NCBI GenBank assembly: GCA_038065495.1
Contig: JBBTQW010000001.1
Span: forward strand, 44,137-108,136
DNA length: 64,000 nt
Direction: 5' to 3'
DNA from: Patescibacteria group bacterium
GTDB lineage: Bacteria > Patescibacteriota > Minisyncoccia > Phycocordibacterales > JACOZG01
Numbering within the stretch: the stretch's first letter is position 1; each line of letters opens with the position of its first letter. Below the pieces are notes generated by a model. That model ran no database searches. It was not told the DNA's origin and saw nothing but the letters and a program-made list of their open reading frames with translations. Positions 3,789-63,053 of this stretch are shown here, piece by piece. Both the position numbers and the translations under genes were made by a program.

Positions 3789-4613
3789 CTACTCTATCTC
3801 GTAACGCAAGGTCACAGACACACGCACTTCTTGCGAACCGGGCTGGATGCTTGGCGCTGGAGCGGCCGCCATACCAAGATCGCGACTCGCCTCCATGCTA
3901 TAAATTTTGGTCATTGGATAATCCATACCACCTTCGTCGATACCCAATAATTCTCCAAGCGAGAAACCGGCCGCTTTGGCAATTGACTTAGCCTTAACCT
4001 TGGCCTCCGCAATGGCTTGAGCGCGAGCTTCGTTCTCGGCTGTCACTGGATCATCAATCGTAAAGTCGAGTTGCGAGACCGAGTTAGCGCCTTGTTTGAT
4101 TACACCCGAGAGCGCCTCGCCGATTTTACTAAAATTATCTTGGCGCACTTTCACCGAAACTGTCTGACTAATGGAGTAGCCAACGATCTCTGGCGGCGGA
4201 CAAGTCTGATTGAAACCGTCTGGACGAAAACCGCAATTGGCCGTCTCATAGCGCGGTGAGAGATTGTAACTCTCGGTCTTAATATCTTTCTCATCTAGCC
4301 CCTGATCTTTTAAGAATTTGATGGCTTTATTAACTTTCTCAGTATTGCTTGTCTGCAGTTTGCTAATATCGGTATCGCCCTCGGTGATTACGCTAAACGT
4401 GAACTTAGCGACGTCTGGCACCACCACCACCTTGCCCTCACCACTAGCCGAGAAGCTGCGGAAAGAGGCTGGCTGGATGGAACGCGCATAAGCGCTCACA
4501 TAACGCCAAGCGGAAAAAGCCACTAATAAAATGCTAATAATCAAAACCCAGCCCAAATAATTCTTTAATTTTTCAGTCATGTTCCACATTATAGCTTTTT
4601 TACTTCTAAACAC
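3789..4613 (-). CDS. SIMPL/DUF541-family periplasmic protein (YggE-like), N-terminal TM anchor
   Basis: 274-aa ORF. An N-terminal hydrophobic segment is followed by a SIMPL-like region (...SISQTVSVKVRQ...IAEAKVKAKSIAKAAGFSLGELLGIDEGG...). The start is ambiguous between 4613, 4589 and 4580. Confidence 0.75.
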   Translation of the reverse strand: MFRSKKAIMWNMTEKLKNYLGWVLIISILLVAFSAWRYVSAYARSIQPASFRSFSASGEGKVVVVPDVAKFTFSVITEGDTDISKLQTSNTEKVNKAIKFLKDQGLDEKDIKTESYNLSPRYETANCGFRPDGFNQTCPPPEIVGYSISQTVSVKVRQDNFSKIGEALSGVIKQGANSVSQLDFTIDDPVTAENEARAQAIAEAKVKAKSIAKAAGFSLGELLGIDEGGMDYPMTKIYSMEASRDLGMAAAPAPSIQPGSQEVRVSVTLRYEIE

Positions 4614-5359
4614 AAGAACAAGGGAAATTCATGTCTCGCGCTATTTTCTGCCTTTTGCCTTGGGCCAGATTCACTTTCGCGATGCGAGATCCACTCCTCT
4701 AATCTCGTGACCGCCAAGCCAGCACTAGCGATGAGCTTGAAATAATACTGCAACGGTCTATGAAAAGAAACTGTTTTCTCGCTGGCTGTCTGACTGCCCG
4801 GATGCATGAGGATTTCTGTCTTGCTCTCACTCATGTATTTATCCAGCCGACGAGCTTGCGTTTTCATTACATCATCCCAGAGCCAAGAACTAGCGCCAGC
4901 AATCCGGAACGCCGGATGGTTCAACACCAGAATTATTTTCCCTGACTTTTTCACTACTCTGTTTATTTCACTAAAAACTAATTTAATATTCTCAATATTT
5001 TGCACTGCCAGCACGCAGATTATTTTATCAAAACTGTTACTTTCTAAACTCGCTAAACTTTCTGCATTAGCAATAAGATATTTTATATTTTTGAAATTTT
5101 TACTATTTTCTTGCGCTAGTTTTACCAATTCAGAAGAAATATCAGCACCAACTATTTCTACTCCACCAACTCTCGCCATTTCGCGAGAGAAAAAACCCGA
5201 ACCACAAGCTAAGTCTAAAACTTTCTCGCCACTTTTTAAGTCCAGCAAGCGCAACAAATTTGGCAGAATTACTTGTTTCTGATAAGTGTCTGGATTCTGC
5301 TCGAGATGATCGTCGTACCAATCAGCGACATTGCCCCAAGAAGTGTTATTTTTTACCAT
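4589..5359 (-). CDS. class I SAM-dependent methyltransferase (Methyltransf_11-like)
   Basis: 256 aa with the VLDLACGSGFFSREMA glycine-rich SAM motif and a DKIICVLAVQNIEN motif II region. Confidence 0.85.
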   Translation of the reverse strand: MVKNNTSWGNVADWYDDHLEQNPDTYQKQVILPNLLRLLDLKSGEKVLDLACGSGFFSREMARVGGVEIVGADISSELVKLAQENSKNFKNIKYLIANAESLASLESNSFDKIICVLAVQNIENIKLVFSEINRVVKKSGKIILVLNHPAFRIAGASSWLWDDVMKTQARRLDKYMSESKTEILMHPGSQTASEKTVSFHRPLQYYFKLIASAGLAVTRLEEWISHRESESGPRQKAENSARHEFPLFLCLEVKKL

Positions 5360-6088: not shown

Positions 6089-6385
6089 TCATTGACTGCG
6101 AATGGTTGCTCCCTTAAACAACCAGCCCGTAAAGACTTCCACCGTCACCCGCTTGCCCACAGGATTGGTCGCCTCTGCGGTGAATCTGGCCGCATCGCTA
6201 TCACTACCTCCGCGGACGCCGATCGCGAACCACGAATGGTCAACAATTTTGATATCGCTGAAACCACTTGTCTCAAGTGCCTTGATTGCGACCTGATCGC
6301 TTACCGTGCACCCGCGACACGACATCAGCGCGACAAGGACAACGATTACGACAACAACGACAACACTGAACCTGTCGATATTCAC
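6089..6385 (-). CDS. small secreted/membrane-anchored hypothetical protein
   Basis: 98 aa with a hydrophobic N-terminus (VVVVVIVVLVALMSCRGC), a good SD (GAAGGAGAAGAATC-GTG/ATG) and consensus promoter module copy P1 upstream. Confidence 0.55.
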   Translation of the reverse strand: MNIDRFSVVVVVVIVVLVALMSCRGCTVSDQVAIKALETSGFSDIKIVDHSWFAIGVRGGSDSDAARFTAEATNPVGKRVTVEVFTGWLFKGATIRSQ

Positions 6386-6550: not shown

Positions 6551-7282
6551 TTATGATTCCAATGATTGCCCCAAGAACACTTTCTCCAATATCCCCCGCG
6601 CCAGCAAATCTGCTGGCACACCCTCCACCACCACTTTACCTTTATCCAGCACATAAGCCCTCGTAGCGATGCTCGCGAGCGATTGCAAATTATGCTCCAC
6701 CACCACAATCGCCATCTGCCGCGCTTCGTTAATTTCTTTTATTTTTGCAAAAACTTCTTTGACAATCTTTGGCGCCAAGCCCAAGCTCGGCTCATCTAAG
6801 AGCAAAATTTCTGGCTCGCACATCAAGCCGCGCGCAATTGCGAGCATCTGTTGCTGGCCACCAGAGAGGCTACCAGACTTGGCTTTTAATTTAGTCTTCA
6901 AAGCCGGGAAAAGTTCTAAAACACCAGCTAATCTCTCAGCAATTAACTTTTTATCCTTGACCTGCCAGGCGCCGAGCTCTAGATTCTCCGCCACGGTCAA
7001 GTGCCGGAACACGCGCCGGCCTTGCGGCACGAAGGCGATACCCCGCGCCGTCATCTGGTGTGAGACTGGCTGGATCGCCTGCCCGCGCCAGCGCACTGTG
7101 CCCGTATCGATTGGCGCCAGACCAAAGATCGCCTTGAGCACCGTGCTCTTGCCCGCGCCGTTCGGGCCCATCAGCGCCACAATCTCACCCTCATCAGCCG
7201 TCACGCTGGCACCATCCAGTGCCCGCACGCCGCCATAATGGACGTGAACACCAGCGAGTTGTAACAGAGTTTCGGTAGGCAT
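6551..7282 (-). CDS. livF: branched-chain amino acid ABC transporter ATP-binding protein (LivF-type)
   Basis: 243 aa with Walker A GPNGAGKST, ABC signature LSGGQQQ and Walker B ILLLDEP. Confidence 0.9.
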   Translation of the reverse strand: MPTETLLQLAGVHVHYGGVRALDGASVTADEGEIVALMGPNGAGKSTVLKAIFGLAPIDTGTVRWRGQAIQPVSHQMTARGIAFVPQGRRVFRHLTVAENLELGAWQVKDKKLIAERLAGVLELFPALKTKLKAKSGSLSGGQQQMLAIARGLMCEPEILLLDEPSLGLAPKIVKEVFAKIKEINEARQMAIVVVEHNLQSLASIATRAYVLDKGKVVVEGVPADLLARGILEKVFLGQSLES

Positions 7283-7288
7283 TAGAAA

Positions 7289-8416
7289 CTATTCGTACGG
7301 GACATATTTACCATCACGAGCAACTTTTACGCTAGTTTGATCGTTAATGTCGCCGTTGTTGTCAAAATTGATCTGATACGATAAGCCGGGAAAATCAGAC
7401 AGGTCGTCTAATTGCTTCTTAATACATTCTCCAGAATAAGCGCTGTTCTGACAAGCTTCGCCAACAAACGAGAGAATCTTGATCGCATCGTAGTGACGCA
7501 AAGTGAGATAACTAAGAAAATCCTGACCGTAACTCTTCTGATATTCTTCGGCAAATTTAGCTGAGGTTTTATTAGTAGGAGCAGTCACTAGCAAGCCCTC
7601 GGCGGCAGATCCAGCTGTCGAAAATAACTCCGGAACATCACAGGGTTGCCCGCACATCATTGGCACTTTAATCCCCAACTCTTTGGCTTGTTTTAGGATC
7701 GTGCCAGCCTCACGATAGAGAGTAGCCAAGAAAATGCCATCCGGATTAGCCGCCTTGACCTTGGCCAGTTGCGCCCGATAATCCGACTGACCAGGAGCGG
7801 AACTTTCTTCCGCGACAATAGTGGCTCTATTGGCCGCATACTTCTTGAACGCGGCTAGAGCGCCAGTGCCATAGTCACTATTGAGATAAAGCACTGCGAT
7901 TTTCTTCTTACCAAGCTTATCGATAAGCACATCTGCCGTGAGTTCAGCCTCTTTATCCGCCGTACCCACAATGCGAAAAGCGTAATCATCCGGGGTCGAA
8001 TAAGCTGGAGCAGCTGTCAACGCGAGCATTGGAACTTGGTCTTGGTTAACGATCGGGATCAGAGGCATCGCGGCTGGACTGCCAAACACCACAACCACAT
8101 CCACCTTGTTTAACGTCCGCAGTTTATTGTAAGCACTTAGAGCCACTTTTGAATCATAAGCATTGTCCTCAAAAATCACTTCGACCTTCTTCCCTTCAGC
8201 TAGTAAATCTTTCACCGCCAATTCCACGCCCTGCTTGGCAAATTCCCCAGCACTAGCAATCGGTCCAGTCAGCGGCAAAATCGCGCCAATTTTAATTACC
8301 TTTTCAGTGGTAGGAGTGACTGGTGTTACTGAATCTTTCTTCACCAAACAAGAAATCCCCCAGATCACCAGAGCAATCACAACTATCCAGAGCACGATTT
8401 TTGTGGTTTTGTTCAT
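7289..8416 (-). CDS. ABC transporter substrate-binding protein, LivK/Peripla_BP_6 family, N-terminal TM anchor (paralog 1)
   Basis: 375 aa. A TM helix is followed by IKIGAILPLTGPIASAGEFAKQGVELAVKDL..., the Leu/Ile/Val-binding protein family signature. Confidence 0.85.
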   Translation of the reverse strand: MNKTTKIVLWIVVIALVIWGISCLVKKDSVTPVTPTTEKVIKIGAILPLTGPIASAGEFAKQGVELAVKDLLAEGKKVEVIFEDNAYDSKVALSAYNKLRTLNKVDVVVVFGSPAAMPLIPIVNQDQVPMLALTAAPAYSTPDDYAFRIVGTADKEAELTADVLIDKLGKKKIAVLYLNSDYGTGALAAFKKYAANRATIVAEESSAPGQSDYRAQLAKVKAANPDGIFLATLYREAGTILKQAKELGIKVPMMCGQPCDVPELFSTAGSAAEGLLVTAPTNKTSAKFAEEYQKSYGQDFLSYLTLRHYDAIKILSFVGEACQNSAYSGECIKKQLDDLSDFPGLSYQINFDNNGDINDQTSVKVARDGKYVPYE

Positions 8417-8505
8417 GAGTTTAAATTTGGCTTAAATTTTTAACAGCCAAATTCTAGCAAACTAGCGCCTATTAGCCAAGAGTCGAAGCAGAGTCTCGGT
8501 GGGCA

Positions 8506-9675
8506 TTAGTTATTCATCGGCAGAAATGTCTCCTTTCCGTCTATGACCTGCGTCAAAGCTAGAGCATATGTGGGTTTGTGATCTGAACCAAAAATGATTC
8601 GTCCAGCAACACCATCCCAAGTGGTTGCCCGCTTGAAATAATCTCGTAGACATTCAACCTCTTGATTGCCACAAGATTCGATAGCCGCCTTCAGACGGAA
8701 CGGCATATCGTAAACCAGTGCAATCAAATGGTTGTTAAATGCAATAGGACGACCATATTTCGCTTCGTAATTAGCCAGAAAATTTATTGCTACGGATTTT
8801 TCTCGGTCAAAGAGCCCGCCAAAAGCAAAGTGCTTTGGCGGCAAATAACCACCAGTAACTTCCATGATCTTCTTAGCACTAAAGGCGGCGTTAAAGGCTG
8901 TGGGCCTCTCCACACCCAACTCTTTAAGTTGCTTCACAATAAGGCCCATTGTTTCTGGTCCTTGAGTGCCGATCAAGATTCCATCAAAAGTATGTGTTTT
9001 TAACTTTTGAACGATTGTGCGGAAATCATTTACCCCCGGAGAAAAACTCTCATCAAAAACTACTACTCCCCCAGCAGCCTGAAAAGCGGTCTTAAAATTC
9101 TCAGAGAAATCTACCGCGAATTCTTTCTTCTCGGTGATAACAGCGATACTTTTGATATCTTGACCAAAAACATATTTAGCACCCTCTTGGGCATAATAGC
9201 TACTGGGCACAGAGTTACGAAAAACCCATTCCCCTTCATTGGGAATGTTCGATACTGACGTAAGATTGGCAAGGACCAAAACTTTGTCTACAGATGATTG
9301 TGGAGCGATTGTCATCGTCTCGGTCGAGCAATGACCACCCAAAATAACACTGACCTTATCGCTGTTAACCAGTTTTTGCCAGGCATTAATAGCCGACTTA
9401 CCGTCACATTTCCCATCTTCGACAATCATCTCAAATGACCGGCCCAGTACTCCACCACTGCTGTTAATTTCCTCGACCGCCAGAAGAATTGCATTCCTAG
9501 CATCCTCACCATAAATTGCCGCCGTCCCCGATAGTGGCGCAATCACCCCAATCTTAATCGGCTCGGCAGAAATAGCCGGAGCTGGGGCTGGCTCTGTTTT
9601 GCCGCTTTTGCTAACCCAAACCCCCAAGCCAATAACTACTAAAATAACCACAATCCAGCCGATGATTTTGTTCAT
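8506..9675 (-). CDS. ABC transporter substrate-binding protein, LivK/Peripla_BP_6 family (paralog 2)
   Basis: 389 aa with IKIGVIAPLSGTAAIYGEDARNAILLAVEEINSSGGVLGR. Confidence 0.85.
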   Translation of the reverse strand: MNKIIGWIVVILVVIGLGVWVSKSGKTEPAPAPAISAEPIKIGVIAPLSGTAAIYGEDARNAILLAVEEINSSGGVLGRSFEMIVEDGKCDGKSAINAWQKLVNSDKVSVILGGHCSTETMTIAPQSSVDKVLVLANLTSVSNIPNEGEWVFRNSVPSSYYAQEGAKYVFGQDIKSIAVITEKKEFAVDFSENFKTAFQAAGGVVVFDESFSPGVNDFRTIVQKLKTHTFDGILIGTQGPETMGLIVKQLKELGVERPTAFNAAFSAKKIMEVTGGYLPPKHFAFGGLFDREKSVAINFLANYEAKYGRPIAFNNHLIALVYDMPFRLKAAIESCGNQEVECLRDYFKRATTWDGVAGRIIFGSDHKPTYALALTQVIDGKETFLPMNN

Positions 9676-9722
9676 ATTTTATTTGTTAATTTCTAATTTA
9701 TCAAAATCCTAGCACAAGCTGA

Positions 9723-10472
9723 TTATTCTCCCAAATACGCCTCCACTACCTCTCGCTGCGCCAGCACCGCACTTGGCTCGCCCTCGGCGAGCAACTGACC
9801 GGAATCCAGCACAATCACGCGATCCGAAAGTTGCCGAATCAGCTCCATATTATGCTCGATCAAGATCACGACTTTATTTTGCTGTTTTAAATCTTGCAAC
9901 ACATTCGTCACAATTTTGATCATCTCGGGGAAAAGTCCGGCAAATGGTTCGTCGAAAAGAAAGATTTGAATCGGGAAAGTCTGCGCCATCGCGAGCACGC
10001 GCGCGATTTCCAACAATTTTCTCTGTCCGTACGAGAGATTAATCGCCAGTTCGCCATGTTTGCTCCACAAATTTACTTTTTCTAAAACCTCGCGCGCTCG
10101 AGCTAAGTGCAGATTGTTATGCTTTTCAAATAGTGCGCTAAAAACTGGTCTGTCTGTTAGGACTACCAAAATATTATCCAGCACACTCATTTGTTCAAAA
10201 AGTCGCACATCCTGAAAAGTCCGGGTAATCCCGTAACTCGGCACTTGCGCTATCTCTACTTTCTTTAACTTCGTCCGTTCCAGAACTACAATTTCCCCAC
10301 CATCTAGCGGCAAAACGCCGGTAAGCAAATTCACCAGCGTACTCTTGCCCGAGCCGTTGGGTCCAATGATGCTGGTAATCTGCCCGGCGGCAAACTGGAG
10401 CGACAAGTGATCCACCGCGTGCACGGCATCAAACTTCTTTACTAGATTGTGAGTGGAGAGGATGGGAGGCAT
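9723..10472 (-). CDS. livG: branched-chain amino acid ABC transporter ATP-binding protein (LivG-type)
   Basis: 249 aa with GPNGSGKST, LSYGQRKLLEIAR and FLFDEP. It shares a start/stop junction with the upstream SBP gene. Confidence 0.9.
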   Translation of the reverse strand: MPPILSTHNLVKKFDAVHAVDHLSLQFAAGQITSIIGPNGSGKSTLVNLLTGVLPLDGGEIVVLERTKLKKVEIAQVPSYGITRTFQDVRLFEQMSVLDNILVVLTDRPVFSALFEKHNNLHLARAREVLEKVNLWSKHGELAINLSYGQRKLLEIARVLAMAQTFPIQIFLFDEPFAGLFPEMIKIVTNVLQDLKQQNKVVILIEHNMELIRQLSDRVIVLDSGQLLAEGEPSAVLAQREVVEAYLGE

Positions 10473-11599
10473 TATGGTTGGGTATAAAGAACCGCTTTCC
10501 CATTAACGATTTGCTTGACGGTTGGCAGAAGACCAATTGCGTCGCCATTTTCATCGAAACCATAAGTCCCCATTACCCCTTTAAAATCCTTGAGGCTGTG
10601 CAAATAGTCTTTTAGTTTCGAGTTATCCAAACCAACATTATCAATAGCCTGCTTTATCATATAAACAGAATCGTATGTAACAGCGTCAGCAAACTTGATT
10701 GTTGGTGCACGACCATAAAGCGACTCAAATTTATGGAAAAGTTCACTTTTTATTTGATTGTTACCAACATTAGGATCAGCAAAGAAAATCATTCCTTCTG
10801 CTTCGGATATTTCAATGACTTCTTCTAATTCACCAAAATAATTACCGTAAATTGGACCTTTATATCCCAATTGCCGCAATTGTCTTAACGCAGAGATTCC
10901 CCCAAGTGGTGCATTTGGATTCATAACCACTGTTTCTGGTTTTTTGGAAATTACATCAAGGACATAACCCCTAAAATCGGTAGTACCTGGAGGGTAATTT
11001 TCTTCAATGACTTCTCCTTGAAAATATTTTTTAAATGCCTTAAGTAAACCGACTGTAAAATCACTCGTTTCTGTTATGACTGCTACTTTCCCATACTTTT
11101 TATTAATCGTCTCCGCCATAACTCTACCAGTATCATCATCAGAGTAAGAATTACGGAAAATAAATTCTCCAGCACCAGTTAAATCAGGATGCGTAGCCCA
11201 CATCGACATCATCAAAACTTGATTCCTCTCGGCCACCGGTGCTACCGCCAAGGCTTCTTGACCACAAATCACCAACAGAATCTTCACCTTGTTTACCGTA
11301 ATCAATTTTTGCGCCGCAGAGAGTGCATCCTTGGGACCACATTTACCATCCTCGTAAATGATTTCTAAAGCCTGACCATTAACACCTCCGGAAGTGTTTA
11401 TTTCCTCGCGAGCGATTTCCACAACATCCCTCATTTCTTCCCCCCAAGCTGCAGCAAAACCAGACAACGGGCCGATAAAACCAATCTTCACAGTCTCACC
11501 ATTTTTTTCTCCAGAATTCTCACTTTTGCTCGCATAAACAGCGATAAAAATTAGCGCGAGAAGTACGAATAACCAGATTATTTTGTTTTGGGCTTGCAT
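10472..11599 (-). CDS. ABC transporter substrate-binding protein, LivK/Peripla_BP_6 family (paralog 3)
   Basis: 375 aa with VKIGFIGPLSGFAAAWGEEMRDVVEIAREEINTSGGVNGQ. Confidence 0.85.
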   Translation of the reverse strand: MQAQNKIIWLFVLLALIFIAVYASKSENSGEKNGETVKIGFIGPLSGFAAAWGEEMRDVVEIAREEINTSGGVNGQALEIIYEDGKCGPKDALSAAQKLITVNKVKILLVICGQEALAVAPVAERNQVLMMSMWATHPDLTGAGEFIFRNSYSDDDTGRVMAETINKKYGKVAVITETSDFTVGLLKAFKKYFQGEVIEENYPPGTTDFRGYVLDVISKKPETVVMNPNAPLGGISALRQLRQLGYKGPIYGNYFGELEEVIEISEAEGMIFFADPNVGNNQIKSELFHKFESLYGRAPTIKFADAVTYDSVYMIKQAIDNVGLDNSKLKDYLHSLKDFKGVMGTYGFDENGDAIGLLPTVKQIVNGKAVLYTQP

Positions 11600-11611
11600 G
11601 ATTTTATTTTT

Positions 11612-12478
11612 TTATAATTTATATTCCCCTACCAAGCCTTGCGGGCGGTAAAGCATTAGTATAACTAAAATCAGACCATAGACCACCTGCCGCATCTGCG
11701 CCGCGATGTCGCTGGGGAAGCCCACAAAGCGCAATAATTCTGGCAAGAGAATGAGAAACAAAGCGCCGAGTAGCGAGCCACGGAGATTGGCTAAGCCGCC
11801 CAGAATGATAATAGCGAGAATAAAGATAGATTCAAATAGAACGAAACTAGACGGATCAACGAAGGTGATGTAAGAGGCAAAGAGCGAACCAGCCACGGCA
11901 GCCAGCGCGGCTGATAAAACAAAGATTATGAGTTTGTAAAAAGTGGTACGATAGCCAAAAACTTGGAGCGCTTGTTCGTCCTCGCGAATAGCGCGGAGGG
12001 CGCGGCCGAAAGAAGAATTGACGATAAAGCGGCATAAGAAATAAACTAATAACAAAATCGCTAGCACTAATAGCAAAAAGTGAAAGTTGTCAGTCAAGTT
12101 GAGGCCAAAAATCTCCGGACGTCTAATACCGGGGATGCCGAGCGGACCTCTGGTTAGGCTTTGCCAGTTGAGGAAAACCGAATAGATAATAATGTTAAAG
12201 CCAAAAGAGCCGAGCGCGTAATAATCGCCGTGGAAGCGGGACAAAACTAAACCAATTAACAAAGCCAAGACAGAAGTGATGAGCACGCCGAGTAGCAAAG
12301 CCACGAAAAAGTTGAGCCCGGTGCTGGTGAGCAAGATCGCCGTGGCATAGGCGCCCAGACCATAGAACGCCGCATGCGTCACACTTAGCAAGCCGGTGTA
12401 GCCCACCACCAAGTTTAAGCTCAAGCCGAGGATGCCGTAGATGCCAACAAGGATTGCTAAGTGAATTAAGTAAGGCAT
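11612..12478 (-). CDS. livM: branched-chain amino acid ABC transporter permease (LivM-type)
   Basis: 288 aa, polytopic, with the LivM-like GYTGLLSVTHAAFYGLGAY motif. Confidence 0.85.
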   Translation of the reverse strand: MPYLIHLAILVGIYGILGLSLNLVVGYTGLLSVTHAAFYGLGAYATAILLTSTGLNFFVALLLGVLITSVLALLIGLVLSRFHGDYYALGSFGFNIIIYSVFLNWQSLTRGPLGIPGIRRPEIFGLNLTDNFHFLLLVLAILLLVYFLCRFIVNSSFGRALRAIREDEQALQVFGYRTTFYKLIIFVLSAALAAVAGSLFASYITFVDPSSFVLFESIFILAIIILGGLANLRGSLLGALFLILLPELLRFVGFPSDIAAQMRQVVYGLILVILMLYRPQGLVGEYKL

Positions 12479-12490
12479 GATTTTTTACTT

Positions 12491-13351
12491 CTATCTTTTG
12501 AACAAGCCCTGCGGGCGGAAAATTAAGAACACAATTAGTAAAGCAAAAGCGATCGCGTCCTTCCACTCGCCCGAGATCTGCCAAATGCCAAAGTTCTCCA
12601 CCGTGCCAAGCAAGAAGGCGCCCAGCACGCCGCCATAGATATTGCCGATGCCGCCCACAATCGCCGCGATCACGCCCTTGAGCAGCAAGTTGAGCCCCAT
12701 CGTCGGCTCAATGCCAGTGTCGAAGCCCACCAAGACGCCCGCCAAGCCACCAATGGCCGCGGAGAGGAAGAAGACAAAGCTGATGATTTTATCAGTATTA
12801 ATCCCCACCACCCGCGCCACCTCTTCATCATCGCCCACCGCTTTAATTGCCCGGCCAAATCTAGTCCGATTGAGGAAGAACGCTAGCGCGAGCATAATCA
12901 GCAAGCCGCTGGCAAGAATCACCAACTGCACGCCGGTAATCGCGCCGCCAATCACTTCATAAATTTTCCCTTCGCCAGCCGAGAGAGTTTGAAACTGACT
13001 GGAAAACAGGATCGCAATCACGGCTTGGAGAGCTGTGAAAATCCCGAGCGAGGCCACTAGCAAGACCATTGTCGAGGCTTTGCGGCGGCGCAATGGTCGG
13101 TAAACGAAGTAATCTGCTAAGTAACCAACCAAACCGGCAAGTAAAATTGCCAAGACCACGCTCAAGCCCAAGTTCAGACCGATTATTTTATACAACCAAT
13201 ACACGCCATAACCACCGATCGCCATCATCACGCCGTAACTAAGGTCAAAAAACTTGACCGTGCTGTAGATGAGATTAAAGCCAAGCGCGATCATCGTGTA
13301 GATCGCGCCGGCGATAATGCTATTGAGAATGAGTTGCGGCAGGATGCCCAT
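12491..13351 (-). CDS. livH: branched-chain amino acid ABC transporter permease (LivH-type)
   Basis: 286 aa, polytopic BPD_transp_2-like. Confidence 0.85.
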   Translation of the reverse strand: MGILPQLILNSIIAGAIYTMIALGFNLIYSTVKFFDLSYGVMMAIGGYGVYWLYKIIGLNLGLSVVLAILLAGLVGYLADYFVYRPLRRRKASTMVLLVASLGIFTALQAVIAILFSSQFQTLSAGEGKIYEVIGGAITGVQLVILASGLLIMLALAFFLNRTRFGRAIKAVGDDEEVARVVGINTDKIISFVFFLSAAIGGLAGVLVGFDTGIEPTMGLNLLLKGVIAAIVGGIGNIYGGVLGAFLLGTVENFGIWQISGEWKDAIAFALLIVFLIFRPQGLFKR

Positions 13352-13371
13352 TGGGCGAGATTTTTACTTTT

Positions 13372-14544
13372 TTAGCTAGCCAGTTCGGCCTTGCCGTTCT
13401 TGATGACTTTCAACACGTGGCCGCCCACACGATCACCGTCCGCGCCGATCGTTACCAAACCAGAAGCTCCCGGCCAATCTTTGACTGTTCTTACCCAAGT
13501 GGCAATCTTTCCCGCATCAGTCCCGTTTTTGTTAATTCCTTCTGCCAGAATATAGACTAAGTCGTATTGTGCTTGAGCATAGTTACGATAAATCATTTCT
13601 TTGCCGTATTTTTTGAGATAGTCCGCGTCGAGTTTTTGCGATTTCGGCAAGCTCGCTGTCCCTTGTTCGGCAACCAATGCGCCCTCAAGTCTCGTTTTGT
13701 GATTAGTAATCAAGTCAGCATTGCCAGAGACAATGTCGTTTGCCAAGAGTGGCACCGACCACTTGAGATCAGCTAGCTGTTTGAGAATCCGTTCGGCCGT
13801 GCCAGGAGATTGAGGATCGATGAACAAAGCATCAGCATTCGCTGCCCGCAATTTCGTGAGAGTAGAACGAAAGTCAGTGGTAGTGCCTGGATACTCTTCT
13901 TTCGTGATTGTCCCCGCCGTTGCTGGGTAATTAGCTTCGAAAGCACGATAAATACCAAGAGCATAATCCGAGGATTCCTGCAGAACGGCTACCTTTTTCC
14001 AACCATGAGCAATCGCGGCCTCGGCTAGCACCCGACCCTGGCCATTGTCGCTAGCCACAGTCCGGGCGAAAAACAGACTTTTGTTTGTCAAATCAGGACT
14101 AGTGGCTGTGCCAGAAAACACAAAGACTTTCGCTTGCTCGGCAATTGGCAAACCGGCCAGAACGGCGCCAGAACAATCCGAGGCGATCACAATCTTGACG
14201 CCGTCAGCGTTGACTAACTTCTGCATTGCATTAGCACCGCCAGTGCCATTGCATTTCCCGTCTTCGTAAACTAGTTCAAATGTTCGGCCATTAATCACAT
14301 TATTTGTGTTGACTTCTTCCACCGCTAGATCAGTCACATTTTTCACAAACTCTCCCAAAGCTGCGGCGTCGCCAGTTAGTGGCGTAATCACACCAACCTT
14401 AATCGGCCCAGTTTCCACCACCGGAGTGGGAGTTTCTGTAGTAGTGGGTGCGCTAGATTGACTCGCTTTGCCGAGATAGGCCAGACCGATAACCAACAGA
14501 ACCAAGATAATCAAACCAACTATCGCTTTGCCAGTATTGCTCAT
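13372..14544 (-). CDS. ABC transporter substrate-binding protein, LivK/Peripla_BP_6 family (paralog 4), first gene of operon
   Basis: 390 aa with IKVGVITPLTGDAAALGEFVKNVTDLAVEEVNTNNVINGR. Confidence 0.85.
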   Translation of the reverse strand: MSNTGKAIVGLIILVLLVIGLAYLGKASQSSAPTTTETPTPVVETGPIKVGVITPLTGDAAALGEFVKNVTDLAVEEVNTNNVINGRTFELVYEDGKCNGTGGANAMQKLVNADGVKIVIASDCSGAVLAGLPIAEQAKVFVFSGTATSPDLTNKSLFFARTVASDNGQGRVLAEAAIAHGWKKVAVLQESSDYALGIYRAFEANYPATAGTITKEEYPGTTTDFRSTLTKLRAANADALFIDPQSPGTAERILKQLADLKWSVPLLANDIVSGNADLITNHKTRLEGALVAEQGTASLPKSQKLDADYLKKYGKEMIYRNYAQAQYDLVYILAEGINKNGTDAGKIATWVRTVKDWPGASGLVTIGADGDRVGGHVLKVIKNGKAELAS

Positions 14545-14593: not shown

Positions 14594-14627
14594 TGCACAC
14601 TCTATTATTATATCATTTCCTCCAACT
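14594..14627 (-). promoter_or_regulatory. candidate promoter for the liv-type operon (TTGCAA-15-TGaTATAAT, extended -10), overlapping the 3' end of pepF
   Basis: Reverse complement reads ttgcaaagttggaggaaatgaTATAAT. Inferred by eye only. Confidence 0.35.
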
Positions 14628-16392
14628 TTGCAATCTTCGCCTCTATTTCCTTCAAACCGCGCTCAAAAAACGCCGGATTTCTCACGTCTACACCAACTTG
14701 CGCGAAAATATCCTCCGGCGAAGCGCTAGAACCGGCAGATAAAAACTGTCTGATTTTTTCTTCAAACTTATTATTTTCTTGATAGCTGGAATATAAAGCA
14801 TTAGAGACTAATTCGCCGAAAGCGTAAGAATAAACATAGAAAAAATTGCGCAAGTGCGACCATGAGACGAAAAAGTAGCCATCAGCTTCTGTGAGCTTAA
14901 ACACCGGCCCAAGATAAGCGCTCATGTGCTGATTTAACAATTTCGCAATTTTTTCTTTACTCAAGCTCCCCTGTTTTCTGATTTGATTATGCAGATCAAG
15001 CTCAAAGTTGAAGCACGCGATTTGCCGGAAGATGGTCATCACAGAGTCATTAATCCGGTCATGTAAAGCTATTATTTTCTCTTTTTCAGTCAGCAGATTA
15101 AACACTTCGTCAAAGACGAAATTTTCGAATAAAGTGCTGGCCACTTCGGCCGTCGCGATGCTGTGGCCGCGGTAGAGCGGCGGCTGGGCGGCATCGCCCA
15201 GCCTGGCATGCATGGCATGCCCCAGCTCGTGAGCCAAAGTCATCAGTGACTTAAAATCCGACAAGTGATTGAGCAAGACAAAGGTTGGCAAGCCTTCTGT
15301 ACTAGAGCAATAAGCGCCGCCGGTCTTCCCGACTTTCGGAAACACATCAATCTGGCCGTTGGCCAAGAATTCTTCAAAAGCCGTCACATAAATCGGATTA
15401 ACTCGGCCGAAAGCTTTCTTCACAATTTCTACCGCTTGGGCAAAAGTAATTTTCTGCGTGGTCTGGCCTACTGGCGCAGCGCGATCGGCGTAAGTTAGGT
15501 TTTTCAAACCCAACATTTTCGCTTTCGCTTTATAAAATCTGTGGCTGATGTGAAAATTTTTAGTAACCGTTTTGACGAGATTATCCACGGTTTTCTCTTC
15601 ATTCTGATAACCCAGAACCGTGGCCGAGTAAGGTTGCGCATAGCCGCGCAGTTCGTCATTGATTTTTTTGTTTAAAACTATGGCGTTTAGTTCACTCTCG
15701 GCGAAATCAGCGACGCTGGCTAATTTTTGATTTACCAAAGTGTGCAATTCTCGTCGCTCTTTCGTTGCCAAAGATTGGATTTTCCCCATTGCTTCGGCCA
15801 GTGGCAATTTTTTATTTTTCCAGAGAATTTCTTGTTTAGAAACAATTTTGTCGTTCCCGCGCACCCACAGCTCATGGGCTGGCAAACTCTTCAAGTTCAT
15901 GATTTTTTCTTCAGCAACAGAGAGCACATGCTTGGCTTCGCGAAAAGCGCATTGGAGTAAAAAACTATATTTCTGCAACTTAGCGTGCTTAAGAAATTTG
16001 GCCTGCAGTTCTGGTTTAATTTTCGTCAGCGCCACACCAAAGAAGGTGATCTTGTTGCCACTATTGGTGTACCTCTGCCCGAGCAAATTTAGCTTCGCCT
16101 CCACTTTGGCATTTTTACTGTCCAGATCATGTTGATAAGCAAAGTAAGCATAAGGCTTACTAAATGCCTGATCAGATAATTTCTCATAATCTGCGAGCGC
16201 TAGCGCGAGCTTGACCGGATCAGTCAGGTAATCCGTTTTGTTCGCATATTTCTGCGCAAACTTTTCATGTGCTTGTTCCATCTTCTGCAAATCACGTTCT
16301 ATGGCCGAATCAGCGTTATTCCGGTACAGCAAACTAAAATCCCAATCCGTTTTGATTTTACTTGTTTTATTTCCAGTCATAATAATCCGCAA
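14608..16392 (-). CDS. pepF: oligoendopeptidase F (M3 family zinc metallopeptidase)
   Basis: 594 aa with an HELGHAMH zinc-binding HEXXH motif and M3B-like length and architecture. Confidence 0.9.
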   Translation of the reverse strand: MRIIMTGNKTSKIKTDWDFSLLYRNNADSAIERDLQKMEQAHEKFAQKYANKTDYLTDPVKLALALADYEKLSDQAFSKPYAYFAYQHDLDSKNAKVEAKLNLLGQRYTNSGNKITFFGVALTKIKPELQAKFLKHAKLQKYSFLLQCAFREAKHVLSVAEEKIMNLKSLPAHELWVRGNDKIVSKQEILWKNKKLPLAEAMGKIQSLATKERRELHTLVNQKLASVADFAESELNAIVLNKKINDELRGYAQPYSATVLGYQNEEKTVDNLVKTVTKNFHISHRFYKAKAKMLGLKNLTYADRAAPVGQTTQKITFAQAVEIVKKAFGRVNPIYVTAFEEFLANGQIDVFPKVGKTGGAYCSSTEGLPTFVLLNHLSDFKSLMTLAHELGHAMHARLGDAAQPPLYRGHSIATAEVASTLFENFVFDEVFNLLTEKEKIIALHDRINDSVMTIFRQIACFNFELDLHNQIRKQGSLSKEKIAKLLNQHMSAYLGPVFKLTEADGYFFVSWSHLRNFFYVYSYAFGELVSNALYSSYQENNKFEEKIRQFLSAGSSASPEDIFAQVGVDVRNPAFFERGLKEIEAKIAKLEEMI

Positions 16393-21157: not shown

Positions 21158-22042
21158 TTAATTAGCAAATTTATAAAAAACTTTCCCCGGGAAGCGTAAA
21201 TCAAGATATTCTAACTCTTGCTTATTCTTTTGCGCTATTTGATATTCTGTAACAAAATCCGGCGCGAGCAGAGCCGCTTGCAGAGTTAAATTTAATTCAC
21301 TACTCACCTGTTCCAGATTAGCCAAAACTGTGAGTGGCCGAGAGAGCGTATCAGCCGCGCGCGTGGCCGTCAAACGATAATCGCTAGCGCTATTCGCCAC
21401 CAGTTCGCTAATCGCCAAGCCAGATAGAATCGTCTGACTGAACGTGTGATTGAGCGTCGTGATTAAATTAGTGATTTGGGTAAAGTTTTGGACCGAAAAT
21501 GGTCGCGTGTTGAGCGCAAGATTTGGGCCTGATGTGGTAAATCTGACAAAAGATTCGCCGGAGAAAACTGGTGCCGGCGCAAAGGCCAGACCAGACTGAT
21601 CGAGCAAGAAACAGATTTGTGGCTGATCACTACCACACCAGAGATATTGCCCGCGCCGCTCGGCCACAACAATCTTGATCGTTGTAAAGTTCTCGCGTGA
21701 GATTTGCGCTGACTCTAGGGTTGGGAATTGCGCGAGCAAGGCTTGCGCGAGCGCCCGCCGCGGATACCACAGGGCATTGCGCCGTGGTAGCACGAACAAA
21801 TAATCACCGGCGAGAAATTCTTGCGTGGCTTGATCTAAAATATCCTGACTCACTGTTTCTTGACCAGCGATCTGGACTTGGCTGATGAGCAAACGCGAGT
21901 GATTGGCAAAAATAATAAAATCAGCAAGCAGCGCGAGAGCGAGCAACAGCCACAGGCTAGAGCGCCAGAGGCGCTCGCGCTGGCGCCGCGCCAGCGCTTG
22001 CTCGCTAAAAATCGCTTTCTTACTTTGCCGGGCGGCACTCAT
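21158..22042 (-). CDS. FtsQ/DivIB-like cell division protein (TM anchor + POTRA-like region), tentative
   Basis: 294 aa. A TM segment (WRSSLWLLLALALLADFIIF) is followed by ...ISQVQIAGQETVSQDILDQA... resembling the POTRA start of FtsQ. Weak family call. Confidence 0.45.
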   Translation of the reverse strand: MSAARQSKKAIFSEQALARRQRERLWRSSLWLLLALALLADFIIFANHSRLLISQVQIAGQETVSQDILDQATQEFLAGDYLFVLPRRNALWYPRRALAQALLAQFPTLESAQISRENFTTIKIVVAERRGQYLWCGSDQPQICFLLDQSGLAFAPAPVFSGESFVRFTTSGPNLALNTRPFSVQNFTQITNLITTLNHTFSQTILSGLAISELVANSASDYRLTATRAADTLSRPLTVLANLEQVSSELNLTLQAALLAPDFVTEYQIAQKNKQELEYLDLRFPGKVFYKFAN

Positions 22043-24510
22043 GCGTTAGTACTAGTTTGCAAACTCAAAGTGCCAGCGAGCCAAGTGGCGCTCGCGCCCG
22101 GCTTGAGCCGACCACTGATAATGGCATCGGCCACCGCTTGCTCTACGTGATCTTGAATATAACGCGCCATTGGCCGAGCGCCAAAGAGCGGATCACTACC
22201 CTTCTGCACCACTTCGGCCACCAATTCTGGCGTGACTTGGAAAGCGATCCCCTGCTCGCGCAAGCGCAGAACTAATTTCTCTAGCTGGAGCTTAGCCACT
22301 TGCGCTAGATTCTGCTCGCTAAGCGGCTGGAAGATCACAACTTCATCAAATCGGTTCAGCAATTCTGGACGGAAAATGCCCGCCTGCACGATTTGATTGA
22401 TTAGTTCAGCCCGCATCGTGCTGGGATCACGCTTAGCTCTGATCATTTGCCAAATAATTTCGGCGCCGGCATTGGACGTAGCCAAGAAAACGATATTTCG
22501 CGCATTAACTCTCCGACCCAACATATCAGAAAAGTAGCCTTCGTCGAGAATTTGCAAAAATAAATTCAGCACGTCTTTGTTAGTCTTTTCAAATTCATCC
22601 AAGAGCAAGACGCCATAAGGATTCTGGCGCAAAAGCTTGGCGAGTAGGCCAGGTTTACCATCGCTAAACGAGCCGATCAAGCGCGAGAGTGACTCGGCGG
22701 ATTGATACTCGCTCATATCCAGGCGCATCATCGCCTCCTCGCGGCCAAAGAGTACCCGCGCCAAGGCTTTGGCCGTTTCCGTCTTACCCACGCCAGTGGA
22801 GCCGAGGAACAAGAACGAGCCAATCGGGCGTTTCTCGTTCCGCACACCCGCGCGAGCTCGTCTTAGAGCCTCACTAATCGCCGCGAGCGCTGTCTCCTGG
22901 CCAATTACTTGCTTTTTCAGCTCTGTTTCTAGACCCAATAACTTAGCCTGTTCCGGCGCGGCAATCGGACCGAGCGGAATGCCGGTCTTCTCTTGCACAA
23001 AAGTGAGCACTTCATCGCGTTCGATTATTCTCGTCTCTCTCCCCGCTTCTCGCTCATGATTTATCACCCACGGCACAATTTCCGTCAGCAGATCCAACGC
23101 CTGATCAGAAATATTCTCAGACGGAAAATAGCGTTCCGCACTGGTGATTAGTGCTGTTAGTGCCTGATAAGTAAAAAAGATTTGTGACTTATTTTTTGAC
23201 TCTAAATCAACCGCCTGCGTTTCTAGAATTTTTATCAATCTAGTTTGATCAATAGTGGCGACTAATAATTGCTCAAAGCGTTGCAAGAGCGTGTCGCGTG
23301 TTTCTAACTCCCGATGGAAGAGTTCACGATCAGCGAGTGCTACTACCATCAGCGCCGGCGAGATGAGAAACTGATCAAGTAAAGCCGTGATGTTACTGCC
23401 TAAGCGTTCGGCCCCAGCCAGCAAAGCGGGCAAGTCGTCGATAATCAGAATAATATTGCCGGCGCTGATAGCCTCACTCAAGAGCTTGAACAATTCCCGC
23501 TCCAGCAGCTCCCGCTCGCGGAAGGCGGCCAAGAAGAGCGCGGTGTGGAAGAGTATTGGCCGGCGATGTTCCAAGCCGGGCGGCACCGCGCCCAGCGCGA
23601 GCTCGCGCACCAGTTCCCACACAATATCTAGCTTGCCGGAGCCAGCCTCGCCCACCACCAGCGCATTGGCCTCCGCCGAGCGCAAGAGAATAGTGGCGAG
23701 CCGCCGCGCCTCGGCGCGGCGGGCACTGGTGCCCGCGGCCAGCGTGGCCGTGGGCTCGCCCGCGAGCAAGTCCTCGCTGTAGCGGAGCAAGGTCGGCACT
23801 TGGCCATAAGACCAAGTCTTGGCCAAGCCCGGGATGCGCTCTAAGTGCTCGCGACTCCACCAACGCTCGGCTCGCGCTCGCGCTTCGATCTCATTCACGA
23901 TCCACTCCACAGCGCCATCAAGTTCCGCGATTTTAATATTTAAGCTAAATAGCCACTTGCTAAAACTCTCATCATGCTGGTAGAGCCAGTCGGCCAAGCG
24001 GCGCAAAGTGAGCGCCTCTGCGCCGCCCAGTTCTAGTTTGACCACTGTTTGTAAATTAGCGTCGCGTTGCTGGAGAAAGCTCGCAATTTGCTGGTAACTC
24101 ACGCCCAAGCGTTGCATCACAGCGAGACCAGTTGAGGAAGTTAAGAAAGCGCTCCAGACATCATCATTTTTTAACTTAAACAAAATCCGGCCAACGGTGA
24201 AAGTAAACAGATCTGCGCGATGATAATTATTATCCAGAATATTGTCGTAATAATAAGAACGGAAAAAGCACTCTATTAAATAGACTAGTAGAGTTAGTGC
24301 CAGCGTGATCATCGCCAAGCCAATCCAGCGTGAGAGAGCGACAGCGCCGCCTTGCCACCAAGCGTGAGCGAGCAACAAAATCAGACCAAGCGCGAGCAAT
24401 TTGCCAACAAACAACAAAATATTCCGCGCACGACGGGAGATTAATTCTTCCAGCAACAAAACTGGATAGAGACGACTCAAACGAATTTTATCAGCAAGGG
24501 TAGAGGGCAT
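22039..24510 (-). CDS. membrane-anchored Clp/Hsp100-like AAA+ ATPase with a degenerate first ATPase module and an intact ClpA/ClpC-type D2 module
   Basis: 823 aa. The N-terminus has 2-3 TM helices. The first module is degenerate (GEAGSGKLDIV...IILIIDDLP) and the second is a canonical ClpA/B D2 (GSTGVGKTETAKALA...LLDEFEKTNKDVLNLFLQILDEG...FLATSN). GC-rich. Confidence 0.7.
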   Translation of the reverse strand: MPSTLADKIRLSRLYPVLLLEELISRRARNILLFVGKLLALGLILLLAHAWWQGGAVALSRWIGLAMITLALTLLVYLIECFFRSYYYDNILDNNYHRADLFTFTVGRILFKLKNDDVWSAFLTSSTGLAVMQRLGVSYQQIASFLQQRDANLQTVVKLELGGAEALTLRRLADWLYQHDESFSKWLFSLNIKIAELDGAVEWIVNEIEARARAERWWSREHLERIPGLAKTWSYGQVPTLLRYSEDLLAGEPTATLAAGTSARRAEARRLATILLRSAEANALVVGEAGSGKLDIVWELVRELALGAVPPGLEHRRPILFHTALFLAAFRERELLERELFKLLSEAISAGNIILIIDDLPALLAGAERLGSNITALLDQFLISPALMVVALADRELFHRELETRDTLLQRFEQLLVATIDQTRLIKILETQAVDLESKNKSQIFFTYQALTALITSAERYFPSENISDQALDLLTEIVPWVINHEREAGRETRIIERDEVLTFVQEKTGIPLGPIAAPEQAKLLGLETELKKQVIGQETALAAISEALRRARAGVRNEKRPIGSFLFLGSTGVGKTETAKALARVLFGREEAMMRLDMSEYQSAESLSRLIGSFSDGKPGLLAKLLRQNPYGVLLLDEFEKTNKDVLNLFLQILDEGYFSDMLGRRVNARNIVFLATSNAGAEIIWQMIRAKRDPSTMRAELINQIVQAGIFRPELLNRFDEVVIFQPLSEQNLAQVAKLQLEKLVLRLREQGIAFQVTPELVAEVVQKGSDPLFGARPMARYIQDHVEQAVADAIISGRLKPGASATWLAGTLSLQTSTNA

Positions 24511-52546: not shown

Positions 52547-53011
52547 CTACTGGGGCAAGAAGCTGTGGACAGAGCTCTTGAGCGTATCTTTGGCGAGATA
52601 ATTAAAGATCGTATTGACGATTAGCCACGCGGCCAGCACCAGCGCCAGGCCAATGATCGCCGCCTGCAGGATCTCAATTGCTTGCTTGCGCTTCTCCGGT
52701 TTGGCTGGCTGGCTGGCCATGCCAATGCCGGCATAAGCAATCGCCACGGTGGCCACCGGCACAGCGAGGACAAAAGTAAAATAGTTCACAATATTCTGCA
52801 CAAGCTTAAAGAAGTCATTGGTCTGGCACTCGGCCTGGCCGGGATTGCCGCAAGGCACAATATTACTAGCCACTTGCGCGTGAGTCACCGAAGCCGAAAA
52901 AATTAGCGTGAGGCTAAAAAGTAAAACTAAAGCGAGAACAATAATTCTGCTAAATAAATTATTCATTATTATTTGCCGGCAAGAGATCTTGTAATTGCGC
53001 GCTGGCATCAC
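52547..53011 (-). CDS. VirB2/TrbC-like (T4SS-pilin-like) small protein, paralog 5 (Cys pair; start possibly internal at 52966)
   Basis: 154-aa ORF. A signal/TM is followed by PCGNPGQAECQTNDFFKLVQNIVNYF, TM1, loop (ASQPAKPEKRKQA) and TM2. The upstream 45 nt overlap the SBP-like gene, so the start may be MNNLFSR. Confidence 0.55.
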   Translation of the reverse strand: MMPARNYKISCRQIIMNNLFSRIIVLALVLLFSLTLIFSASVTHAQVASNIVPCGNPGQAECQTNDFFKLVQNIVNYFTFVLAVPVATVAIAYAGIGMASQPAKPEKRKQAIEILQAAIIGLALVLAAWLIVNTIFNYLAKDTLKSSVHSFLPQ

Positions 53012-60820: not shown

Positions 60821-60826
60821 GTTTAA

Positions 60827-61951: not shown

Positions 61952-61975
61952 GATTAATTAATTTAGAATAACTTA

Positions 61976-62977: not shown

Positions 62978-62993
62978 GATTTACCCACAGTAG

Positions 62994-63027
62994 CAAAAAA
63001 CTCGCTAAGAGTGAAGCGAGTTTTTTG
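62994..63027 (-). repeat. repeated hairpin element copy 2 (tagcaaaaaaCTCGCTAAGAGTGAAGCGAGtttttt)
   Basis: Identical 20-mer to copy 1 with the same flanks. It acts as terminator for 63054..63881 and sits upstream of the SBP paralog 7 start. Confidence 0.6.
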
Positions 63028-63053
63028 TGAGAAACAGAATCAGTTAGCCAGAT

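Follow-up and report, generated by a model that had tools for sequence, protein, structure and literature searches.

One Liv-type importer and seven diverged binding-protein genes in a Patescibacteria contig

We analyzed a 64,000-nucleotide stretch of contig JBBTQW010000001.1 (positions 44,137 to 108,136, GenBank assembly GCA_038065495.1, Patescibacteria group bacterium; hereafter the window), which encodes an ATP-binding cassette (ABC) importer of the Liv type and seven paralogous substrate-binding proteins (SBP1–SBP7). From the gene content and order, the divergence and fold of the paralogs, the arrays of SBP genes throughout the lineage and the decoupling of SBP from translocator similarity, we consider it probable that one LivHMGF-type importer of the HAAT family is served by a panel of seven anciently diverged cell-surface receptors, with the M3 peptidase encoded upstream as an incidental neighbor. 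Each receptor would capture its own small ligand, dock on LivHM and trigger ATP-driven import; receptor diversity, not pump diversity, would then widen the substrate range of the single pump. The translocator common to all seven SBPs, their tethering and their distinct ligands are the parts of this model that we infer. The genes concerned are as follows.

14608–16392, minus strand: M3 peptidase (Peptidase_M3 and Peptidase_M3_N; Pfam and open reading frame (ORF) listing).
13372–14544, minus strand: SBP1, Peripla_BP_6, 390 aa, first gene of the importer operon (Pfam E 5.5e-45).
12491–13351, minus strand: LivH-type permease, BPD_transp_2, 286 aa (Pfam E 1.8e-47).
11612–12478, minus strand: LivM-type permease, BPD_transp_2, 288 aa (Pfam E 7.5e-51).
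10472–11599, minus strand: SBP2, Peripla_BP_6, 375 aa, at the LivM–LivG junction (Pfam E 9e-51).
9723–10472, minus strand: LivG-type ATPase, ABC_tran and BCA_ABC_TP_C, 249 aa (Pfam).
8506–9675, minus strand: SBP3, Peripla_BP_6, 389 aa (Pfam E 1.4e-51).
7289–8416, minus strand: SBP4, Peripla_BP_6, 375 aa (Pfam E 6.6e-51).
6551–7282, minus strand: LivF-type ATPase, ABC_tran, 243 aa, last gene of the operon (Pfam E 1.8e-35).
61976–62977, minus strand: SBP5, Peripla_BP_6, 333 aa, short subfamily, gene 1 of the second cluster (Pfam E 9e-28).
60827–61951, minus strand: SBP6, Peripla_BP_6, 374 aa, gene 2 of the second cluster (Pfam E 2.9e-45).
59762–60820, minus strand: SBP7, Peripla_BP_6, 352 aa, gene 3 of the second cluster (Pfam E 1.9e-19).

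An initial annotation, made from the DNA letters alone, had proposed the minus-strand order peptidase, SBP-LivH-LivM-SBP-LivG-SBP-SBP-LivF, and the ORFs and Pfam agree with it. The Pfam domains likewise bear out a Liv-type importer of HAAT type with four interleaved SBP genes. The proposed operon span of 6551–14544 holds for SBP1 to LivF, and the peptidase (14608–16392) falls outside it. Within SBP1 to LivF the intergenic gaps are −1 to 89 nt, and the SBP2 stop overlaps the LivG start by 1 nt. The three additional tandem paralogs placed at 59762–62977 are all Peripla_BP_6 proteins by Pfam, arranged head to tail in the order SBP5-SBP6-SBP7, ~45 kb from the translocator genes. Run against all six reading frames with hmmsearch, a profile built from the seven detects these seven Peripla_BP_6-type SBPs in the window and no others, and phmmer finds LivH/LivM as the sole permease pair of this type and LivG/LivF as the sole ABC ATPases; neither search revealed further SBPs or a second translocator there. 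The suggested ratio of seven SBPs to a single permease/ATPase set is thus established within the window.

The translocator has the composition of the HAAT family (TC 3.A.1.4), with two BPD_transp_2 permeases, LivG and LivF ATPases and a Peripla_BP_6 binding protein. Both permeases match PF02653, and both ATPases match PF00005 with intact Walker A/B and signature motifs, which read GPNGSGKST, LSYGQ and DEP in LivG, followed by a C-terminal BCA_ABC_TP_C domain (PF12399), and GPNGAGKST, LSGGQ and LLLDEPS in LivF. LivM is a short form without the N-terminal extension of Escherichia coli LivM (288 vs 425 aa). All seven SBPs exceed the Pfam gathering score for Peripla_BP_6. The NCBIfam cut-offs for LIV-I are not reached (SBPs 53–114 bits vs 477, LivH 127 vs 379, LivM 178 vs 366), and the proteins are therefore distant HAAT members rather than orthologs of the E. 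coli LIV-I proteins. The UrtABCDE equivalog cut-offs are not reached either (UrtA at most 83 bits vs 493, UrtB 131 vs 250, UrtC 130 vs 296).

Pairwise identity among the seven SBPs is 24–33%, which shows that they are not near-identical recent duplicates, and no DNA repeats were found between their genes. Three fold motifs are invariant, IKIG..PL(T/S)G..A..GE, (Y/F)ED and A..KL. In the alignment, the Cys53–Cys78 pair of LivJ is kept in six of the seven, SBP4 alone being without both Cys; the joint loss of both sides is what one would expect of an extracytoplasmic disulfide. SBP3–SBP6 have another pair of Cys close to the C-terminus, C-x(5-9)-EC. Recent duplication or gene conversion is ruled out by the identity range and the lack of common DNA repeats, the only match being the 5′ ends of SBP6 and SBP7. 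Around these two start codons (60800–60860 and 61930–61991, minus strand) ~33 nt are nearly identical, TTAATTAA[T/A]CATGAAAAAAGTAATAATTTGG, and the N-termini are almost identical (MKKVIIWLV...), with the whole proteins only 28% identical. Cassette-type recombination sites between the genes are also ruled out, as the short gaps contain no repeat family.

NCBIfam ranks the LivJ-type subfamily first and UrtA second for all seven SBPs, all far below the curated cut-offs. A search of the PDB with the profile of the seven placed 3td9, 4gnr, 4n0q, LivJ and LivK at the top, with urea binders and AmiC tens of orders of magnitude lower, and single-sequence searches with SBP1 (best match 3td9, E 1.4e-30), SBP5 and SBP7 likewise favored Leu/Ile/Val-type binders. 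SBP3 gave a near-tie between 8tg1, a urea-binding protein from Caldicellulosiruptor (5.3e-26), and 4gnr, a LivJ protein (2.7e-25); its NCBIfam scores, both far under cut-off, are 104 bits for the LivJ subfamily and 83 bits for UrtA. The ligand class of SBP3 appears ambiguous, LivJ-like or urea-binder-like. With this caveat for SBP3, the paralogs do not fall into a urea/amide-binding family, since Leu/Ile/Val-type proteins rank above.

We used AlphaFold2 (AF2), run on the seven-paralog alignment, to model SBP5 and SBP7, the two shortest proteins and weakest Pfam matches. Both models contain an N-terminal helix (residues 3–23 in SBP5, 2–23 in SBP7), a low-confidence linker of ~10 residues and a full two-lobe α/β fold, with a predicted local distance difference test score (pLDDT) of 75 and a predicted template modeling score (pTM) of 0.69 for SBP5, and 77 and 0.72 for SBP7. 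Despite their partial Pfam coverage, the two are thus predicted to be structurally complete two-lobe proteins. In Foldseek, the best match of the SBP5 model was 4n0q (template modeling score 0.78) and those of the SBP7 model were 4n0q and 4gnr; their neighbors include the Leu- or Ile-bound HAAT proteins 4n0q, 4gnr and 3td9. Binders of 4-hydroxybenzoate, p-coumarate, pyroglutamate, GABA, urea and 2-oxo acids score nearly as high. The fold confirms the family but not the ligand, because neighbors with very different ligands score alike.

For comparison, we took LivM relatives at 66–86% identity from 80 species-representative genomes. This set was picked by LivM similarity and covers this lineage only; we identified SBPs in the 80 loci by means of the paralog profile, and Liv genes with BLAST. 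The lineage-named metagenome-assembled genomes (MAGs) in it are assigned to Candidatus Taylor-, Kaiser-, Wolfe- or Nomurabacteria, Paceibacterota or Parcubacteria, all of which fall within the Parcubacteria group of the Patescibacteria group. Many records bear the automatic labels ‘uncultured Candidatus Saccharibacteria’ or ‘Gammaproteobacteria’, which we judged unreliable. A LivH sequence identical to that of the window is found on contig CAYHIU010000001.1 (GCA_964356885.1) and in two independent assemblies, one of them from a Hainich groundwater H41 0.1-µm sample, and the gene order is identical across all three assemblies with this LivH.

The translocator is well conserved across the related loci, with LivH 58–77% and LivM 66–86% identical, and the four proteins LivH, LivM, LivG and LivF 52–86% identical to those of the window. 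Between LivH and LivF, 37 of the 47 related loci that contain both genes carry one to seven SBP genes, and SBP genes occupy all four junctions in relatives (before H, H-M, M-G and G-F). The 37 loci for which the full 20.9 kb was available hold 0–11 SBP genes each, with a median of six; examples are L004 (SSSHMSSSGSSSSF), L063 (HSSSMSGSSF) and L015, with ten SBPs. The interleaved placement that the initial annotation described is present here but is not specific to this genome; interleaving is a lineage trait of Parcubacteria/Paceibacteria, in which the SBP array turns over rapidly.

This turnover is seen in the SBPs themselves. Most of those in relatives are 22–35% identical to any window paralog, and the 308 SBPs from related loci form 74 clusters at 40% identity, 36 of them singletons. 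SBP1 has reciprocal orthologs (40–60% identity) in 14 related loci, 12 of which lie directly upstream of LivH. Between the window and its closest relative (L007), LivM is 86% identical and the SBP preceding LivH 39%; between L007 and L028 both values are 71%. Where two genomes have LivM proteins at least 80% identical, the pre-LivH SBP falls below 40% identity in 61% of the pairs. SBP similarity is thus decoupled from translocator similarity, which indicates that receptor genes are replaced, exchanged or differentially lost while the translocator backbone stays stable. We propose that SBP genes are gained, lost and replaced in this lineage at all junctions of the conserved liv operon, and that this turnover would account for the interleaved layout, rather than a special regulatory design of this genome.

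Other genes accompany the arrays of relatives. A Bro-N protein of phage or mobile-element type is encoded inside the Liv/SBP array of L005 (10946–11809, minus strand) beside truncated SBP fragments, which hints at a role of mobile elements in array remodeling. S-adenosylmethionine-dependent methyltransferases (MTS/PrmA-like, Methyltransf_11, CMAS) recur in or beside the SBP arrays of several relatives, for example L058 (16360–17082, 18246–18971, 7199–7954 and 6038–7159) and L012 (13577–14284); in the window, a methyltransferase gene (4589–5359, minus strand) lies three genes downstream of LivF, after orf98 and a VTT-domain gene. One MAG contains two distinct LivM loci with different SBP layouts (L066 and L069, contigs JAUPVY010000001 and JAUPVY010000002), representing either two Liv systems per genome or a mixed bin.

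The three distant paralogs also have relatives within Liv loci. SBP5 orthologs (43–65% identity) occur in six loci, five of them after LivG, and include a 339-aa protein of similar length in L058 (60% identity). SBP6 orthologs (41–68%) occur in four loci, including the H-M and post-G slots, and SBP7 orthologs (40–50%) in three, all within Liv operons. The strongest evidence we have that SBP5–SBP7 serve the same translocator is the position of their orthologs, most of which are found within Liv operons in relatives; this position also suggests that the SBP5–SBP7 genes are displaced members of the same receptor panel.

We compared the candidate ligand pockets with that of LivJ, whose Glu226 binds the α-ammonium group of the ligand. 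The pocket residues reported for LivJ, Tyr18, Leu77, Cys78, Ser79, Ala100–Ala103, Tyr150, Tyr202 and Phe276 (PMC6983066), together with Asp121, Glu226 and Gly227, define 14 columns in an alignment of 293 Paceibacteria SBPs with LivJ and LivK of E. coli MG1655. The residues of the window paralogs at LivJ positions 79, 102, 150, 202 and 226 are given below; at ~20% identity, the C-lobe columns are uncertain for all seven.

SBP1: S, T, Y, S, D.
SBP2: G, T, F, A, Y.
SBP3: S, S, F, G, A.
SBP4: S, A, Y, L, Q.
SBP5: G, A, F, I, Y.
SBP6: A, N, F, L, Y.
SBP7: S, G, Y, S, V.

SBP1 has the most LivJ-like pocket of the seven: it retains Cys-Ser, Thr-Ala-Thr and Tyr150, carries Asp in the column of LivJ Glu226, and alone keeps the LivJ-like set of Ser79, Thr102 and an acidic residue at 226. 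The other six are non-acidic at 226 and variable at 79 and 102; SBP2, for example, has Cys-Gly, Trp-Ala-Thr and a Tyr at the 226 column. An acidic residue stands at this column in only 45% of the 293 related SBPs. Mean entropy across these SBPs is 3.22 bits for the 14 pocket columns and 2.78 bits for all 330 scored columns, and only 0.9% of random column sets score as high as the pocket. Pocket columns this variable support diversified specificities; they speak neither for amino acids as ligands of every paralog nor for peptides. SBP1 thus appears to be a conserved LivJ-like amino-acid receptor, and the six others would have different pockets.

A hydrophobic N-terminal segment is present in all seven SBPs (KD19 2.4–3.3). 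We tested for the lipobox pattern [LVI][ASTVI][GAS]C at the end of the signal sequence: six SBPs contain no Cys within their first 40 residues, and Cys23 of SBP4, in ‘WGISC’ close to where the hydrophobic segment ends, is a relaxed match only. Among 290 full-length related SBPs, 284 have the hydrophobic segment, with a median uncharged stretch of 20 residues, and one has a lipobox-like match. The proteins are therefore non-lipidated and without a classical lipobox. They are probably kept on the membrane by the uncleaved N-terminal helix and a short flexible linker, because an SBP set free by a cell that has no outer membrane would be lost; cells of the candidate phyla radiation (CPR) lack an outer membrane. 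Of the earlier proposal of a transmembrane anchor in place of a lipobox, the absence of a classical lipobox stands, while the anchor itself is probable, with a cleaved Sec signal as the alternative. The 275-aa protein encoded directly upstream of the SBP5–SBP7 cluster (63054–63881, minus strand) has no Pfam match; a classical cleavable signal peptide (...AQA↓Q) precedes its Gly/Ser/Thr-rich body, and the hydrophobic region of this clearly secreted protein is about as long as those of the SBPs.

The translated peptidase contains a HELGH motif and is an M3B-type, PepF-like oligoendopeptidase, its nearest solved structures being 3ce2 and 2qr4. The public gene call starts it at ATG 16380, giving 590 aa. 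Its subfamily appears not to be fixed by the NCBIfam scores, as it missed the cut-offs of both PepF (TIGR00181, 275 bits vs 491) and the closer family M3_fam_3 (393 bits vs 562). It has no N-terminal hydrophobic segment and no signal or transmembrane segment, so it is cytoplasmic and cannot release import substrates outside the cell. The peptidase gene adjoins the liv operon in none of the 80 related loci, which rules out a conserved linkage, and a homolog is present in only one, the closest relative (61% identity), where 5.6 kb separate it from the first gene of the liv operon downstream. In the window it is separated from SBP1 by 63 nt on the same strand, without a terminator-like hairpin, and a weak promoter-like site (14633–14604) overlaps its 3′ end. 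The peptidase is probably an incidental cytoplasmic neighbor of the importer. The idea that a PepF is positioned to feed the importer finds no support, given its cytoplasmic location, its sub-threshold PepF score and its absence beside the operon in all 80 loci; co-transcription with the operon may nevertheless occur.

No terminator-like hairpin was found on the coding strand within the gaps from SBP1 to LivF, and promoter-like sites lie in the 47-nt gap upstream of SBP3 (9704–9676) and the 89-nt gap upstream of SBP4 (8479–8451). In relatives, the arrays of 36 of the 80 loci contain 94 helix-turn-helix regulators of the TrmB family (~260 aa, PF01978; for example L012, 4757–5560, minus strand, and L058, 10889–11713, minus strand). 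Opposite-strand genes account for 86 of these, and 77 of the 86 have an SBP gene as their divergent neighbor. A search of the window with a profile made from 57 relatives gave no TrmB-type regulator, and the array there is a compact, regulator-free version.

The preferred reading, one translocator with seven tethered receptors, has to be weighed against others. The initial annotation took all seven SBPs to bind amino acids or peptides of differing specificity, with substrates supplied by a co-transcribed oligoendopeptidase. The tight same-strand spacing of peptidase and SBP1 suits this, as do the LivJ-like recognition residues retained in SBP1 and the nearest characterized relatives of six of the seven SBPs, which bind Leu/Ile/Val (the top match of SBP3 is a urea binder, near-tied with LivJ). 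We regard it as improbable, because the peptidase is intracellular, is adjacent to the operon in no related locus and lies 5.6 kb away in the closest, has a promoter-like site at its 3′ end, and because six of the seven SBPs are non-acidic at the LivJ Glu226 column. No known peptide binder occurs among the solved neighbors of the fold family in either the PDB profile search or Foldseek, and peptide import is therefore dropped. Differing specificities agree with the unusually variable pocket columns. Amino acids as the ligands of all seven fit the LivJ-like set of SBP1 and do not fit the other six, SBP3 tying with a urea-binding protein. It is possible, if somewhat unlikely, that most paralogs bind non-amino-acids (organic or aromatic acids, urea or amides) and amino-acid derivatives, with Liv as a broad-range importer that offsets a scarcity of transporters. 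The range of ligands bound by fold neighbors at similar scores (including Leu/Ile), the SBP3 tie, the frequent lack of an acidic residue at the Glu226 column among the 293 SBPs and the 74 SBP clusters all point this way, and in relatives each of 77 SBP genes is accompanied by a divergent TrmB-type regulator, a pattern that induction by specific substrates would predict. However, the permease channel would have to accept every ligand, yet the translocator is 52–86% conserved, and Leu/Ile/Val binders rank first for the seven-SBP profile and in three of the four single-paralog searches, the exception being SBP3, whose top match is a urea binder.

That some paralogs are decaying copies, or have been reused as sensors, surface proteins or host-contact proteins, we hold to be very improbable. 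The short lengths and partial Pfam coverage of SBP5 and SBP7 (333 and 352 aa), and their position 45 kb from the translocator, would fit such a fate; they nevertheless model as complete two-lobe binding proteins, their ORFs are intact with conserved fold motifs, and other genomes have orthologs of about the same size within their Liv operons (such as that in L058). Recent redundant duplicates or an assembly artefact are vanishingly unlikely: we found no point in favor, the paralogs are too divergent and free of common repeats, and the same locus was recovered in three independent assemblies. Some points weigh against the panel of seven tethered receptors. By eye, the N-termini of SBP2, SBP6 and SBP7 (V-x-A↓S-K) fit a loose −3/−1 signal-peptidase rule, making cleavage and release possible; the pocket alignment to LivJ is at ~20% identity, and the C-lobe columns 202 and 226 may be misaligned; the promoter-like sites upstream of SBP3 and SBP4 are consensus matches only; and a second translocator could lie elsewhere in this genome, one related MAG having two LivM loci.

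Several features of the window lie outside these arguments. After LivF, a sigma-70-like promoter with TG that matches 12/12 positions (6486–6459, minus strand) opens the next unit, followed on the same strand by a 98-aa ORF (6089–6385) and a strong terminator-like hairpin (6059–6034). The hairpin lies inside the annotated 5′ end of the VTT-domain gene, and the true start of that gene is therefore probably further downstream; the gene is called at 206 aa in a sister assembly. Between the gene of the secreted 275-aa protein and SBP5, a T-run hairpin (AACTCGCT-tcactctt-AGCGAGTTTTTTG; 62978–63053, minus strand) ends ~20 nt before the SBP5 start codon, too tight for a standard promoter. A 441-aa sugar-type binding protein (SBP_bac_1/SBP_bac_8; 52959–54284, minus strand) has no cognate permease or ATPase in the window and is an apparent orphan receptor. 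The window has two ClpB-like AAA+ genes (22039–24510 and 37801–40515, both minus strand); the 904-aa protein is full length, with Clp_N and two AAA domains, and the 823-aa protein matches only the second AAA module and D2-small.

CPR/Patescibacteria lack most biosynthetic pathways and encode few recognizable transporters. The auxotrophic or host-dependent lifestyle suggested by the initial annotation is plausible on such general knowledge, because the organism is a Patescibacteria/CPR MAG from groundwater. As to how Patescibacteria acquire building blocks, the data point to one pump being kept and the receptors being diversified. More speculatively, and in our view rather unlikely as a whole, the single, highly conserved Liv translocator of Parcubacteria/Paceibacteria could be a general import hub, with fast-turning, laterally exchanged tethered receptors (up to 11 or more per locus), often with their own TrmB-type regulator and mostly with ligands other than branched-chain amino acids. 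If so, the hub would be a main route to diverse host or environmental metabolites for biosynthetically poor, transporter-poor cells. The ~74 receptor subfamilies are a concrete, testable set, and knowing their ligands would reveal which compounds these uncultured cells import; because receptor and translocator are decoupled, the locus is also useful as a marker of adaptation to a niche or host. For the window alone the meaning is more modest: the importer belongs to an ordinary ABC family, its multi-receptor layout is unusual, and the link to the peptidase falls away. A full-text literature search found no specific description of Patescibacteria Liv/SBP arrays; one paper does no more than mention that amino-acid SBPs are expressed in Patescibacteria (PMC10936435).

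The type example of the HAAT family, E. coli LIV-I (LivJ/LivK and LivHMGF), has the same five protein families, with two permeases, two ATPases, a C-terminal BCA motif in LivG and more than one binding protein per translocator, and SBP1 retains the LivJ disulfide and N-lobe pocket motif. However, E. coli has two receptors that are 77% identical compared to seven here at 24–33%, livK is placed first and livJ in its own unit whereas the SBP genes here lie between permease and ATPase genes, and LivJ/LivK are cleaved periplasmic proteins whereas a hydrophobic N-terminal tether is probable here. Borrelia OppA1–5 with one OppBCDF, and streptococcal AmiA/AliA/AliB, have several tandem or unlinked anchored receptors per translocator in a reduced, host-dependent, monoderm-like cell; these differ in ABC family and SBP fold class, the receptors are lipoproteins, and the receptor genes stand ahead of the permeases without interleaving. 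Proteins of the same fold with Foldseek scores similar to SBP5/SBP7 include the lignin-aromatic binders of Rhodopseudomonas palustris (4evq, 4evs, 4f8j) and the urea (8tg1) and pyroglutamate (8wch) binders, which extend the ligand range of the family well beyond branched-chain amino acids; the sequence profile ranks such proteins below Leu/Ile/Val binders, and they usually have their own transporter. In Rhizobium leguminosarum, the orphan BraC3 uses BraDEFG, a translocator unlinked to braC3 (PMC2978685). BraC and BraC3 with BraDEFG thus offer a model for SBP5–SBP7, as an unlinked orphan receptor of different specificity, and differ in having two receptors, a periplasmic diderm context and no interleaving. 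Several receptors per HAAT translocator are established (LivJ/LivK, BraC3); what sets the present system apart from the known ones are the number and divergence of the receptors, their interleaving with permease and ATPase genes, the probable signal-anchor tether, the lineage-wide turnover and, in relatives, the dedicated regulators.

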